From IMG/VR virus record IMGVR_UViG_3300034104_000851, positions 1-58,385 of that record: a stretch of DNA of 58,385 bases; one strand, written 5' to 3'. Each line of letters starts with the position of its first letter. Positions within the stretch are counted from its first letter, which is position 1. Both the position numbers and the translations under genes were made by a program. The notes beneath the pieces were generated by a model. It was not told the origin of the DNA. It saw only the letters and a list, made by a program, of their open reading frames with translations, and did no database searches. Shown in pieces: positions 36,057 through 40,390 of this stretch. Source of the stretch: a virus (taxonomy: Duplodnaviria > Caudoviricetes).

Positions 36057-38398
36057 TTCTTGCCTATCGACGGCATGATGCTCGACTTAGGCAAGTCTTC
36101 CGCCAAGCGGCGCAAGTCTGATTTGTTCCCTTTTTTCACGTCTGGCGCGACAAAGATATGTTTCTTGGTCACATATTCAGTCGAACCGATCCGGCCCATG
36201 TCAACCCAGCCAGCTTCTTTGAGCGCATGAAGCAGCGCCGCCTGTGGTATCTTGACGCCAGCAGGGACGTTAATCGCCAGCGCGTCACAGATGCGATGGA
36301 AAGGCCCACCAATGACACCATTGGCAAACACACCCGCCCTTTCGCGCATCATGTCCACAAGATAGCTTTCCGCGACGCTCATGCCATGCTCGACCATGTT
36401 CAGCTTCCATTCGGTCACTGGCGGCGCAGCCGCAGGGTTGAACGCCGACACGTCGCGCTGATGCAGCCAAGCGGCGCACTTCTCATAGCCGCCGCTTTCA
36501 TACCAGCCCCACAGCTTTTTGGCTGCGGTCGGCGTCATACGCGGCGCGCGCGTCCACACGCAGAACCAGCGCCTGTCCTGTGTCGGTAGCGTGATAGGCA
36601 GCGGATCGTTCGTGTAGGCAATCACCATCAGGCGGTTGACCAAGTCGTAAGGGTGCATACCCTTGCGGTTGACCGACAGCGTTTCAGGCGGTGCGGCGAT
36701 AAGCGGCTTTAGCTTGTTAGCCATAGCGCGACGTTCGCGTGCCTCTGGCTCCTTCAACTCGTTCAGGATGACAACTTCAGCCTCAAGCGCATAACCCCAC
36801 TGGCTGTCCAACCCGCCAGCCTCAATGACTGACCTGTTGCGCCAGTGCTGACCGCCAAGCGCCCACAGGAACGGCTGGAACATACTGTCCTTACCAGCGC
36901 CTTCATCGCCGCCAATCAGGATGGCATGGTTAATCTTGACGCTAGGGTGCTGTATCTTGAACGCCATAGCGTCAAGGATGTGGTCTAACTCGACATCATC
37001 CGCCACCAGACTGCGGCAATGCTCTAGCCAAGGTTCGACATCATGGTCTGCAATCTTGTCGCTGCCCGACACATCAGGCCGTCCGTCTGTCCAGCGATTG
37101 CCGTAGACAAGCCCATCACGCGTCACCAGCACGTCATCGCCAGCGGCGAACGTCACAGCCGACAGCGCAGGGGCGCCGCGATCCTGACGGCGCTCATCAT
37201 AATAGATGGACGCCTGCACGCGGTTTGTCTTCTTGTGTATGGAACGGCAGTCAACGTGACGGAACAACGCGTTAAAGACGTTGCGGGCTATCTCTTGACG
37301 CGTCACCATGTCAAAATAGCTATCGTCGGACTGGATGTATGCGAAACGCTCGAACCATTCGCTTTGTTCCAGCCGTCCTGCCTCTTTCTTTTCGACCTCA
37401 CGCACACGCGCTGCGGCCTCATCAGGGAAGGCTTCGGTCGGCGCGATTTTCTCATACATCGACGCCAGACGTTCAGCGATTAGTTCGTCACGCAAGCCCG
37501 GCGTTACCTTCGGGCCACCTTCATTGGCTACCCAATCAAGGAACGTGCGGCTGTCTAAGTCTTGGCAATGCCCATGATAGCAGCAGAACGAACGATCCAG
37601 CGGCTTGTAGCGCGCCTCGACCATGCCGTCGCTGTGTTGCTCATGGTTAGGGCAGACGATGCCGCACCAGCCGTCAGCGTTAGGATGGCTAAGGACTAGG
37701 TTGTTGTCCGCAAGCCATGTGAGGACGTTGTCCAACCCATTGTCGCGCAACTGCACAGCTTTATATTCGGCTGTGTCGCCTTCTTCTGGCGTAACGTCCA
37801 GCGCCTTGCAGATTTCGTCCAGCGTGTATTCCCGCTCAGGGTTGAACGATACCAGACGCGCAGGAAAGTTATTGCGCCCTTGCTTCAGGTTGACGCTGCC
37901 GGGGATGCGGCAGTTGCGGACGGCGTTAGTCGCACCGGGATCAGTGTAGCCAGCGTCCGCAATGGCCTTGATGGCAGCGCAGAAGTCGCCCTTGCGTGGC
38001 TGTTCGCTGAACGCGTAACCCCATTGGAACGAACCTTCGCTGGTTTCCAATATCCATGTCGGGTCAAGCGGCGGCGTCTTTGACTTAGTGCCGACATCGT
38101 CCAGCATCATAAACAACACATACTCGACGTTGCTGGACTTGGCGGCTGGCTTGCCGTCTACAAAGCGGCCAACGATGAACGAACCTGTGTTGACATACCA
38201 TGCCTCGCCTTCTTTCATGCGGGTCTTTTCTGGCAGGAACGCAGGAAACGTCGCCTTCGGCGCGCCGTCTGCGTGGAATATCATGTTGCCGTCGCTGTCG
38301 TGTTGCGGCTTCTGCCGCACCACAAGGGCTGTCTCGCCGACGTTGTCCGTCGCCAAGCCAGTTATGTATTCTATGAATTTCGTGCGATCCTCACTCAT
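36053..38398 (-). CDS. Primase-helicase (RepB-like primase, Zn motif, DUF5906/SF3-like helicase)
   Basis: ETSEGSFQWGY, RIPGSVNLK, CP.H..H...C.H.HC, Walker A GDEGAGKD, VILNE; GAGGAG RBS before MSEDR. Confidence 0.88.
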   Translation of the reverse strand: MSEDRTKFIEYITGLATDNVGETALVVRQKPQHDSDGNMIFHADGAPKATFPAFLPEKTRMKEGEAWYVNTGSFIVGRFVDGKPAAKSSNVEYVLFMMLDDVGTKSKTPPLDPTWILETSEGSFQWGYAFSEQPRKGDFCAAIKAIADAGYTDPGATNAVRNCRIPGSVNLKQGRNNFPARLVSFNPEREYTLDEICKALDVTPEEGDTAEYKAVQLRDNGLDNVLTWLADNNLVLSHPNADGWCGIVCPNHEQHSDGMVEARYKPLDRSFCCYHGHCQDLDSRTFLDWVANEGGPKVTPGLRDELIAERLASMYEKIAPTEAFPDEAAARVREVEKKEAGRLEQSEWFERFAYIQSDDSYFDMVTRQEIARNVFNALFRHVDCRSIHKKTNRVQASIYYDERRQDRGAPALSAVTFAAGDDVLVTRDGLVYGNRWTDGRPDVSGSDKIADHDVEPWLEHCRSLVADDVELDHILDAMAFKIQHPSVKINHAILIGGDEGAGKDSMFQPFLWALGGQHWRNRSVIEAGGLDSQWGYALEAEVVILNELKEPEARERRAMANKLKPLIAAPPETLSVNRKGMHPYDLVNRLMVIAYTNDPLPITLPTQDRRWFCVWTRAPRMTPTAAKKLWGWYESGGYEKCAAWLHQRDVSAFNPAAAPPVTEWKLNMVEHGMSVAESYLVDMMRERAGVFANGVIGGPFHRICDALAINVPAGVKIPQAALLHALKEAGWVDMGRIGSTEYVTKKHIFVAPDVKKGNKSDLRRLAEDLPKSSIMPSIGKN

Positions 38399-38409
38399 CG
38401 CTTGCTCCT

Positions 38410-40365
38410 CTATTTGCCGTATCGTTCCATTATTGCCACTTCTGCGTTCAGGGGTAAACCCGACGCCCAAGGTGGCGGCTCACACATAATCTGCACCAGC
38501 CGCGCTGCGGCGGCTTCGGCTTCATCCTCTGGCACTTCCAAGACAATTTCATCGTGGATGTGCAGCACTACGTTATCCAATCGACGCAAGGCGTGGCGCA
38601 GCAAGTCGTTAGCGACAGCCTGCGTGATATTCTCACACGCCAGACCGCGCCACAGCCGCGCCCTAGGCCATTCCTTAGCGTCTGCGGCTGGCTTCCATGA
38701 AGCCTTGGCATAGGTCAGATTGCCTTCCTCGTCGAAACGGGCGAAAGGATAACATAACACACGTCCAGACGGAAGCGCATACCAAAGATGCAATCCATCA
38801 AATAAATATGTGACGCGGCCAATGGTAAACTCACGGCCCTTGTTCCGCATGGCGCGCATATAGGTGTCCTCAAGGCCAGACCAGTAAGGCACAGCCCACT
38901 TGTTAGCCCTGCGCCATGCGTCCACCATGCGCTTCGCGTCGCTCTCCGACATCAGCAAGCCGTAGATGCGGCCCATGCTGGCGAACGCACCGACGCCGCC
39001 TGCAAAGCCGCACGCCAACTCTTGAACCTTCCCGATCTGGCGCTGGTCTTTATCGACCTCATCATAGCTGACATGAAAGGTCGCCATAGCGTTGTGCTTG
39101 TAAACGTCCTCACCCTTGGCAAAGATGTCCAGCTTGTTCACACCAAAGATGCTGTTGGACGCCCACGGCGTCACCCGCGCTTCAATGGCAGCCCAATCGG
39201 CAACGACCAGCCGCTTGCCTTTGTCGGCCATCAGCGCAGGGCGTAGCATACCTTTCAGCACGTCCGTCACGCGGCGGCCATGCTCAGGCACGATCTGGTG
39301 CCCGCGCACCATAGCCTGCCGCACTAATGCAGGGTCGGCGGCGCACTTTCTTGGGAAGTTGTGGACCTGAAGCCCAAATGATGAAGCGCGGCCAGTAGCA
39401 CTGCCTCCTGCAAATACAAATGCTCCTCTAACTCGAAAATCTTCCTCATCAGCAAGCGCCGCGGCACGCTGGAATTTTGCCACGGACGATGCCCAGAGAT
39501 CGTCCGCGCACTGGATGACTTCTGCAACTTCCGCCGGAACTTCATCAGGGTTTTCCTCCGCCAGCACGAGTAGGTTAGCGCGCACGTTCTTGTCAATGGA
39601 CAGCTTCTCAACGCCGTCCTTCATCACAGTTGCCACGGCCACGGCCTGCGGCCCTACCCTGTCCAGCACCCACGCCTTCATCTTGGGGCTGCGGACGGAC
39701 TTAATCTCGCCCTTCGTCACCTCTGCGACGATGTCCTGTATCTCGACCATCTCTTCTTGGGCGTAACGCACAGCAGCCAGCGCCAGCGGCCTGTCGAGCA
39801 ACACGCCACGGTCGTTAATCCGTTCGTTGGTGTGATAGTCGGCCAACTCTTCCGCCGACAGCGGACGCTGCGCCTGCGCGATAGCGCGCATGGCCCGAAC
39901 GTCCTGTTCGCAATAATCAACCATCTCCTGCATCAGCGTCGCGTCCTCACGAAACGTGCCGTCTGATTGCGGGATGGACAGCAAGCGGATCAGTTGTCCG
40001 CCGCGATGGTCTTTCTTCATGGTCGCGCCAGCGAAGCGGCCCACATCCTCAAGGCTACCCGGCGCGCAGTTGGCGCGGGCTTGCGCTGCGGTGCAGTAGA
40101 ACTGCTCCAGCTTGAAATCGACCTGAAGGACATACCAGAATATCAGGCGCTCGAACGCTGCGTTGTGCGCGTACACCAGCCCCTTGTGGTCACGCACGGC
40201 TTGCGGGAAAGGCTCACCGGGGAGCCACGTCCGCACGTCTTCGTCATCAAATGCGTAGGACATACACAGCACGTCGGTGCTGGCGTCCTGCGCGTAATTA
40301 TAGACGCCGCGGCTGCGAAGGTCGCAACGGCTGCGCGTCTCAAAATCAACCCATAATTTAGACAT
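38410..40365 (-). CDS. DNA polymerase family A
   Basis: ExoI DFET, ExoII AHNAAFE, ExoIII YCEQD, TGR, motif A DWAAIEAR, motif B RQIGKVQELA, motif C HIHDEI. Confidence 0.95.
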   Translation of the reverse strand: MSKLWVDFETRSRCDLRSRGVYNYAQDASTDVLCMSYAFDDEDVRTWLPGEPFPQAVRDHKGLVYAHNAAFERLIFWYVLQVDFKLEQFYCTAAQARANCAPGSLEDVGRFAGATMKKDHRGGQLIRLLSIPQSDGTFREDATLMQEMVDYCEQDVRAMRAIAQAQRPLSAEELADYHTNERINDRGVLLDRPLALAAVRYAQEEMVEIQDIVAEVTKGEIKSVRSPKMKAWVLDRVGPQAVAVATVMKDGVEKLSIDKNVRANLLVLAEENPDEVPAEVAEVIQCADDLWASSVAKFQRAAALADEEDFRVRGAFVFAGGSATGRASSFGLQVHNFPRKCAADPALVRQAMVRGHQIVPEHGRRVTDVLKGMLRPALMADKGKRLVVADWAAIEARVTPWASNSIFGVNKLDIFAKGEDVYKHNAMATFHVSYDEVDKDQRQIGKVQELACGFAGGVGAFASMGRIYGLLMSESDAKRMVDAWRRANKWAVPYWSGLEDTYMRAMRNKGREFTIGRVTYLFDGLHLWYALPSGRVLCYPFARFDEEGNLTYAKASWKPAADAKEWPRARLWRGLACENITQAVANDLLRHALRRLDNVVLHIHDEIVLEVPEDEAEAAAARLVQIMCEPPPWASGLPLNAEVAIMERYGK

Positions 40366-40390
40366 AGAAGTTCTCACTCTTCTGCTACTC

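Follow-up and report, generated by a model that had tools for sequence, protein, structure and literature searches.

What would read a short purine word that stands at the start codons of several genes in one phage genome? The word is GAGUGAG, with the core AGUGAG, and the genome is the IMG/VR virus record IMGVR_UViG_3300034104_000851, which was analyzed over its whole length of 58,385 nucleotides (nt) and is called the window below. Two of the genes encode replication proteins, a family A DNA polymerase (polA) and a primase, and both carry the word in the loop of a small hairpin at the start. The complement of the word forms the loop of a terminator hairpin behind the primase gene. We favor, with somewhat better than even confidence, the reading that a phage small RNA (sRNA), or the 3′ end of the operon mRNA, would pair loop-to-loop with the polA and primase starts and would repress their translation. 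An initial annotation of the window had proposed kissing-loop targets for an sRNA at four start regions, namely those of polA, the primase and two early genes. The proposal stands for polA and the primase, which face a complementary and co-varying terminator loop, but not for the two early genes.

Loop complementarity between operon end and replication gene starts

The features concerned, from the polA leader to the end of the primase transcript, are:

40366..40383, minus strand: polA-leader hairpin AGAAG / AGUGAGAA / CUUCU, directly before the AUG at 40365..40363
38410..40365, minus strand: DNA polymerase gene (family A), 651 amino acids (aa), Pfam DNA_pol_A, E 9.9e-18
38384..38401, minus strand: primase-start hairpin GCGAU / GAGUGAGG / AUCGC, with the AUG at 38398..38396 and a GGAGCA resembling a Shine-Dalgarno (SD) sequence at 38408..38403
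36053..38398, minus strand: primase/helicase gene, 781 aa, RepB-type primase N-terminal domain plus DUF5906 (Pfam, residues 4-781)
35952..36023, minus strand: candidate sRNA with predicted ends (about 65-72 nt); alternatively, the primase mRNA 3′ end
36000..36022, minus strand: hairpin 1 of the candidate sRNA, stem of 8-10 base pairs (bp), loop (G)AUGCUCC
35962..35994, U-tract on the minus strand: terminator hairpin of the convergent early and replication operons, 12-bp GC-rich stem

In the terminator hairpin, the loop is UCCUCACUC when read on the minus (primase) strand and GAGUGAGGA when read on the plus (early) strand. The stem is followed by UUUUUAUUUAUU on the minus strand, as in a rho-independent terminator at an RNA 3′ end. 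The U-tract thus lies on the primase strand, and the transcribed loop is therefore the anti-motif UCCUCACUC. Within the window, this loop and GAGUGAGGA at the primase start are exactly complementary over 9 nt, and its complementarity to the polA loop extends over 7 nt.

The comparison with relatives used the best 80 of each scan; the PolA scan confirmed at least 597 relatives, of which the best 80 were kept. A terminator search after the primase gene that was blind to the motif and took the strongest candidate found a terminator in 74 of 80 loci. The loop contains CUCA(C/A) in 67 of these 74, spread over 26 distinct 5′ stem arms, while a motif-guided search found the terminator in 58 of 81 sources. 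The terminator stems vary widely among the relatives and covary, and the loop is kept.

We counted complementarity between the terminator loop, extended by 2 nt on either side, and the primase start region in 83 distinct pairs from 145 loci, 76 of them with a terminator call. At least 6 nt are complementary in 66 of the 76 distinct pairs (9 nt in 28, 8 nt in nine, 7 nt in 21, and 6 nt in eight). The remaining ten share 4 nt or fewer; three of them are truncated, mis-started primases and the rest belong to distant clades without the motif at either place. Several clades carry altered but fitting sequences. Matched changes are seen in the L081/L181 clade, where GAUUGAGGA at the primase start faces UCCUCAAUC in the terminator loop, and in L237 GAGUGAGA is paired with UCUCACUC. 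The loop UGCCUCACU of group-3 relatives fits AGUGAGGCA at polA over 9 nt, and in L038 CCUCACUUC fits GAAGUGAGG, likewise over 9 nt. In L195/215/216, L256-259, and L077, the motif is missing at the starts and in the terminator loop alike. The L073/74 clade has the terminator loop AUUGCUCC together with AGGAGCA as the SD of both polA and the primase, and a further GGAGCAA in primase codons 4-5. Duplex folds were also run on seven chosen start regions; their full-length energies ignore intramolecular structure and were not used as evidence.

The initial annotation had named a loop-binding repressor protein as the alternative to a pairing RNA. In this explanation, a phage or host RNA-binding protein reads the (G)AGUGAG(G) loop as a translational operator at the polA leader and the primase start, a kind of control known from T4 gp43 and RegA. 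The protein would also bind the early-operon transcript, in which the terminator loop reads GAGUGAGGA. A conserved loop on varying stems is a classic signature of hairpins read by proteins, and the polA hairpin, with a 5-bp stem and an 8-nt loop, sits at the ribosome-binding site of a polymerase gene. Moreover, the L081 change gives the same new motif at both sites on the motif strands. One published case describes terminator loops that probably act without base-pairing (PMC11979758). A protein reader, however, would have had to shift its specificity in step in the L081 clade, where pairing needs a single compensatory change. It also leaves three features unexplained: the second conserved loop UGCUCC that faces the primase SD, the U-tract on the primase strand, and the flanks of the group-3 loop, which track those of polA. 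No RNA-binding family was found in ten small early open reading frames (ORFs) with PHROGs and Pfam. We therefore consider a protein reader less parsimonious than a pairing RNA and unlikely, and keep it as a rival.

Hairpins at the start codons

The four motif-bearing sequences lie where the initial annotation had placed them. GAGTGAG as such is not enriched in the window: seven copies are present where 4.3 ± 2.2 are expected, and a count of seven is attained in 17 of 100 shuffles. AGTGAGA, with three copies against 4.0 expected, is not enriched either. Since these counts are near expectation, overall enrichment was dropped as evidence in favor of placement. The core AGTGAG has ten copies in the window, six of them on the sense strand, and five of these six lie within −20..+15 of a start codon, a zone that makes up 4.4% of the sense strand. 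The sixth forms the terminator loop between the two convergent operons. For comparison, GGAG falls within −20..+15 of starts in 19 of 86 copies and GAGG in 11 of 122.

The short stems carry no such signal. We searched for stems closing within −4..+3 of the start, with G-U pairs allowed, at 75 called starts and at 5000 random positions. Stems of at least 4 bp were found at 32 of the 75 starts versus 53.6% of the random positions, and stems of at least 5 bp at 16 of 75 versus 27.3%. By the initial annotation's own criterion, that the stems should not be just as frequent at other start regions, they fail, 4-5 bp stems being at chance level. Being equally common at random positions, they were rejected as evidence on their own, and those at start codons have no weight before the comparison with relatives. 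We should note that this test scored the primase start 9 nt too far downstream, so that the primase hairpin falls outside its 75 starts. The hairpins at polA and the primase were retained despite the chance-level stems because the comparison with relatives supports them. The claim that the motif is displayed in hairpin loops at four starts thus holds for these two genes, while the hairpins of the two early genes, with weak folds and stems for which conservation was seen at most among near-identical relatives, are not supported.

The placement near starts also bears on a simpler explanation, in which the motif is a local variant of the ribosome-binding site (GAGG or GGAG plus context) exposed in a loop, and its complement in the terminator is coincidental or a minor cis-acting anti-SD. 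Two sites do overlap a canonical (A)GGAG, and a third, at the start of a DUF2800 nuclease gene, is a GAGG at normal spacing. SD-like four-letter words are enriched at starts as well (GGAG, 19 of 86), and generic stems are common there. At the primase, however, the motif follows the AUG and a separate AGGAG is available as SD. The core of 6-9 nt is also kept far more strictly than usual SD sequences. Neither the complement in 67 of 74 terminators despite 26 stem arms nor the compensatory pair of the L081 clade fits a mere SD variant, and we regard this explanation as quite improbable.

The polA hairpin, a 5-bp stem with an 8-nt loop, is the minimum-energy fold in the longer (68-nt) context only. 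Its anchor and motif were found in 69 of 81 sources, which represent 31 distinct polA leaders. All five stem positions are paired in 22 of these, four of five in eight, and three or fewer in one. The arms covary, as AGAAG/CUUCU, GGAUG/CAUCC, and GGUUG/CAACC with the wobble intermediates GGGUG/CAUCC and GGAUG/CGUCC, and the AGUGAG loop stays invariant while they change. These arms were counted directly. A covariance model of the polA leader was set aside for this hairpin, as it forced the group-1 stems into the group-2 register.

The usual order upstream of polA in the relatives is a variable GC hairpin, an invariant GCGAGUAGC box, the AGUGAG hairpin, and the start codon. In at least nine loci, other ORFs are found between this leader element and polA, and there the hairpin lies at, or a few nucleotides from, the first start codon. 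Because it accompanies whichever start codon comes first behind the GC hairpin, it is an element of the operon leader rather than specific to polA. The neighboring conserved element is:

40384..40413, minus strand: GC-rich hairpin (40392-40413), then the invariant GCGAGUAGC box

The GC-rich hairpin, which is helix 1 of the covariance model, has 98.1% of its cells paired, and six of its nine pairs are changed on both sides. The element is kept at 42-47 bits in distant relatives without AGUGAG loops. The hairpin at 40392-40413 lacks a U-tract and may be a processing site, a 5′ stabilizer, or an attenuator.

The primase hairpin reads as in the initial annotation, with one correction: the AUG lies at 38398..38396, and the loop GAGUGAGG consists of codons 1-4 rather than preceding the start, with a separate AGGAG serving as SD. 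Among the four hairpins, this one alone stands out thermodynamically (−6.8 kcal/mol, 91% of the ensemble, z −2.38). For the comparison, loci beginning with M-S-E-D-R were collected and any synonymous codon was accepted, which gave 130 loci with 75 distinct contexts. GCGAUGAGUGAGGAUCGC is invariant at the primase start. Codons 2-5 (AGT GAG GAT CGC) and the preceding GCG are identical in 75 of 75 distinct contexts, whereas codons 7, 8, 10, 11, 14, and 15 vary at synonymous sites. Judged by this pattern of conservation, the target hairpins are under selection at the nucleotide level.

The group-2 relatives L038, L040, L050, L055, and L070 show a further copy of the motif in this region. In them, the polA Lys-stop codons and the primase SD jointly form a second (A)AGUGAGGA, which precedes the motif at the primase start by 18 nt.

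Three further sites carry the motif:

31954..31970, plus strand: GGAGUGAG at the ribosome-binding site of early gene 1, nominal 4-bp stem; a possible extra target with an unsupported hairpin
32773..32790, plus strand: AGGAGUGAG at the ribosome-binding site of early gene 2 (DUF7249), nominal 4-bp stem AUAG/CUAU
1565..1571, minus strand: GAGUGAG(G) at the start of the DUF2800 nuclease gene, 2-8 nt upstream with the AUG at 1557, no stable stem

Early gene 1 (gene 31969) had been read as AUGG-AGUGAGACA-CCAU(G) at 31954-31971 on the plus strand. Of nine homologous start regions, five contain GGAGTGAG and only that of the window has the stem; the AUGG/CCAU stem is absent in all eight homologous loci, and three of the homologues carry GGAGCAAATGA in place of GGAGTGAG. 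The centroid fold has −0.2 kcal/mol and is no better than shuffled sequences. Early gene 2 (gene 32789), read as AUAG-GAGUGAGAAA-CUAU(G) at 32773-32791 on the plus strand, encodes a DUF7249 protein that is found in many phage types. Its motif and stem occur only in six near-identical relatives of 80 homologous loci, and this fold (−1.1 kcal/mol, z +0.13) is likewise no better than shuffles. The (A/G)AGTGAGGTA start region of the DUF2800 gene recurs in many relatives. The unstructured DUF2800 motif and the sites at the two early genes may serve as weaker targets in addition.

The DUF2800 gene is present in two copies in the window. The start reads GAGUGAGG in copy 1 (1557-1571) and AAAGGAAGG in copy 2 (42240-42262, minus strand), so that within one record one copy is a predicted target and the other is not. 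Directly before the first early gene, the stretch 31905-31950 contains TTGTTGTTGACA followed by a tandem ATAAGAGGGTA ATAAGAGGGTA. The tandem repeat is conserved in three of eight homologous loci and partly in a fourth, and the stretch is probably the early promoter region.

The candidate RNA and its genomic setting

A 77-nt stretch of the window at the candidate RNA folds at −38.3 kcal/mol (z −6.7), and none of 200 shuffles folds as well. The RNAalifold consensus of 22 distinct group-1 relatives has 20 pairs, seven of them with compensatory changes, and one broken cell. In hairpin 1, compensatory or wobble changes preserve all eight consensus pairs, and the loop keeps the core TGCTCC. Rfam gave no family at gathering score anywhere in the window and, within 30900-42400, three chance-level matches with E 0.17-0.53.

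The UGCUCC of the hairpin-1 loop is complementary to the GGAGCA at the primase SD. Among 52 distinct pairs, the loop and GGAGCA are both present in 21 and both absent in 12; the loop occurs without GGAGCA in 17 and GGAGCA without the loop in two. A pairing of hairpin 1 with the primase SD would thus be loose, and we advance it tentatively.

A promoter-like element precedes the RNA:

36027..36056, minus strand: TTGACA (36056..36051), variable spacer, and TGATATAT (36035..36028)

The TTGACA block overlaps the primase stop codon at 36055..36053. Among the 22 distinct group-1 relatives, GAATTGACA is invariant in all and ATGATATA in 21, and the spacer between the conserved TTGACA and TGATATA blocks is variable. 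ATGATATA is followed by a short variable stretch and then by the covarying hairpin with the UGCUCC loop. We read this arrangement as a candidate sRNA gene with a putative promoter of the extended −10 type in group 1. In groups 2 and 3, the RNA may instead be the 3′ end of the operon mRNA.

The spacer itself (36036-36050, minus strand) and the same place in L005-L071 contain differing palindromes, for example CAACCAtttGGTTG, CTGATATCAG, and CACGggataaCGTG. Their appearance suggests operators of type-specific DNA-binding proteins.

The position of the two hairpin loops around the primase gene, on opposite strands, recalls another possibility, namely that the hairpins are replication signals in single-stranded DNA, such as priming sites for a RepB-type primase on opposite strands. 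The ssiA and ssiB sites of RSF1010 are priming sites arranged in this way. The primase of the window has a RepB_primase N-terminal domain, below the curated cut-off (22.8 versus 24.3 bits), and the same loop is found on opposite strands flanking its gene. In RSF1010, however, the stem base and the flanks are read and not the loop. The motif strand follows transcription, and its position follows the start codons even where genes are inserted. One member is a canonical intrinsic terminator with a U-tract, and the UGCUCC loop would have no role. We consider such a DNA signal very improbable.

Several points weigh against control by a pairing RNA. The relatives share ancestry, so that the number of independent events is small. 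The covariation of the polA stem amounts to two double changes with wobble intermediates; the alignment to the covariance model put group 1 in the wrong register, with helix 2 paired at 73.2%. The primase hairpin shows no stem covariation and is invariant throughout, which protein binding or a role at the DNA level could explain. The same co-variation of loop and targets would be expected if one protein read the motif on the transcripts of both strands. UGCUC(C/U) occurs without GGAGCA in 17 of the 52 distinct pairs, so that the link between hairpin 1 and the SD is loose, and L010 has changed the hairpin-1 loop with no compensating change. The promoter-like element was not called by a consensus promoter scan, the rule of which demands T at position 6 of the −10 hexamer. 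The −10 of the element ends without a conserved T, and the Asn and stop codons of the primase make up part of its −35 block. Groups 2 and 3 have no obvious counterpart of this promoter, their hairpins following directly after the stop codon. As to expression, matches came from six RNA-labelled runs with shares of 0.05-0.10; the four examined are contigs, probably of DNA and mostly 88-95% alike. Such contigs give neither ends nor strand and are uninformative either way on expression.

The genomic setting is that of a podophage record of roughly the 38-kilobase (kb) type. The IMG/VR contig of 58,385 bases comprises about 1.5 diverged copies of one phage genome, and its relatives are contigs of 36-38.8 kb, several of them with terminal repeats. 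Positions 1-20175 and 40672-58385 are 79-98% identical, which may mean that two strains were joined in a chimeric concatemer or that the tandem arrangement is real. The closest deposited phage record has 67.9% identity over 32% of the query, and the phage database comparison revealed no cultured close relative. A comparison of the primase with genome contigs gave seven short contigs of metagenome-assembled genomes from unrelated phyla, from which the host cannot be inferred.

The minus strand encodes a P22-type portal protein, terminase, and head and tail genes. It also carries the replication module, which consists of the DUF2800 nuclease, a 220-aa protein, the family A DNA polymerase, and the RepB-type primase with DUF5906. 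A block of small early ORFs occupies 31969-35956 on the plus strand. Between the divergent late and early operons lies a gene-free region of 0.8 kb with about six iteron-like copies of (T)CATGAC(T)GCGTA at 31430-31540, followed by many CTAGGC/GCCTAA words at 31550-31850. From their sequence, these arrays may represent a candidate origin or a regulatory array. Several late-gene starts (e.g., 10954, 23323, 25699, and 52413, minus strand) have TAAGGA-type SDs in nominal 4-7 bp stems. The pattern recurs in the form (C)TATA...TATG(G), closing on the AUG, and probably just results from the combination of a stop codon, the SD, and an AT-rich spacer.

Proposed control circuit, known systems and meaning

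In the mechanism that we favor, a short RNA gene lies behind the replication module on the same strand, and the RNA would start at a promoter-like element of its own, be set free as the operon mRNA's 3′ end, or arise in both ways. The terminator loop UCCUCACUC would then pair with the (G)AGUGAG(G) displayed in the hairpin loops of the polA leader and the primase start, and the first loop, UGCUCC, would perhaps contact the GGAGCA just upstream of the primase AUG. Loop-loop pairing of 7-9 bp would cover the ribosome-binding region, and translation of polymerase and primase would be repressed. The outcome would be a negative feedback or a timer on the synthesis of replication proteins. From sequence we infer that the RNA accumulates, that kissing of the loops occurs, and that translation is repressed rather than activated. 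Repression is the expected direction because pairing would involve the SD-like purines of polA and, in the primase gene, codons 1-4. Being located at the end of the operon that it regulates, the RNA would accumulate with operon transcription and would therefore act as a feedback device or timer.

Kissing between loops is the first step of antisense control in CopA/CopT of plasmid R1 and RNAI/RNAII of ColE1, which control the replication of a mobile replicon. These antisense RNAs are cis-encoded and fully complementary to a target at the same locus. The parallel, which the initial annotation had drawn, extends to the mechanism but not to the genetic arrangement. Both partners' bases lie in loops for polA, the primase, and the terminator, though not for the DUF2800 or early-gene sites. 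The candidate RNA is not cis-encoded in this sense; it is encoded on the same strand, at a distance of 2.4 kb (primase) and 4.4 kb (polA) from the starts, with 7-9 nt of complementarity. In OxyS-fhlA of Escherichia coli, two sRNA loops pair with two mRNA sites, the SD and the coding region. The predicted pairings UGCUCC/GGAGCA and UCCUCACUC/GAGUGAGGA at the primase resemble this case, the first of them being the more tentative. OxyS, in contrast, is a host stress RNA. The gene 43 operator of T4 has a 5-bp stem and an 8-nt loop at the ribosome-binding site of the DNA polymerase gene and is bound by the family B polymerase itself. The polA hairpin is comparable in shape alone: here, the polymerase belongs to family A, other genes carry the loop as well, and it co-varies with the complementary loop of the candidate RNA.

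The closest phage example is the c4 antisense RNA of P1/P7. According to a 2025 review, c4 belongs to the same transcription unit as its target, its loops pair around the ribosome-binding site and block translation, and sequence variants of c4 give heteroimmunity (PMC12197685). The candidate RNA shares with c4 that it is encoded by the phage in the operon concerned and has loop complementarity at the ribosome-binding site. It differs in that c4 controls an antirepressor operon and thereby immunity, whereas the targets here are polymerase and primase, and in that it lies at the operon 3′ end and uses the terminator loop. No Rfam family matched, c4 included. The CI RNA of P4 can be set beside c4 in this comparison.

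A functional likeness, without sequence homology, also exists with LhrC of Listeria monocytogenes, in which CU-rich motifs in two loops, including the terminator loop, bind an AG-rich SD and kissing has been proposed as the first contact (PMC4132741). The CU-rich conserved loops UGCUCC and the terminator loop UCCUCACUC are the counterparts here. LhrC, however, is encoded by its Gram-positive host, its CUCCC motif is redundant, and its target has no structure; the motif targeted here lies in a hairpin loop and, at the primase, within codons 1-4.

For most known phage sRNAs, the targets are host genes, immunity, lysis, or structural genes. The literature searched, without supplementary tables, contained no phage RNA that controls the phage's own polymerase or primase, and the words primase, DNA polymerase, and kissing are absent from the 2025 review (PMC12197685). 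The supplement of this review tabulates 38 uncharacterized phage sRNAs, which may matter for the question of novelty. Gene regulation by terminator loops has been called "rather unusual" (PMC11979758). The case for such control in the window is one of comparative genomics.

A more speculative extension, which we hold to be rather improbable, concerns related phages infecting the same cell. By analogy with c4 of P1/P7 or the copy-number RNAs of plasmids, the RNA might be a determinant of immunity or incompatibility for replication among co-infecting relatives. In that case, the RNA of the resident or first-arriving phage would silence the polymerase and primase of incoming relatives sharing AGUGAG loops, the GAUUGAGGA/UCCUCAAUC clade would be an orthogonal, heteroimmune type, and the spacer palindromes would be the operators of type-specific repressors that time RNA synthesis. 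The same natural compensatory variant, GAUUGAGGA/UCCUCAAUC, could be of use as an orthogonal pair in experiments.

If the favored mechanism holds, these phages would contain an RNA circuit within the replication operon, in which the terminal hairpin acts back on the starts of the operon's own polymerase and primase genes and a terminator loop serves as the seed. The element belongs to a large family of uncultivated phages, with at least 597 polA relatives.

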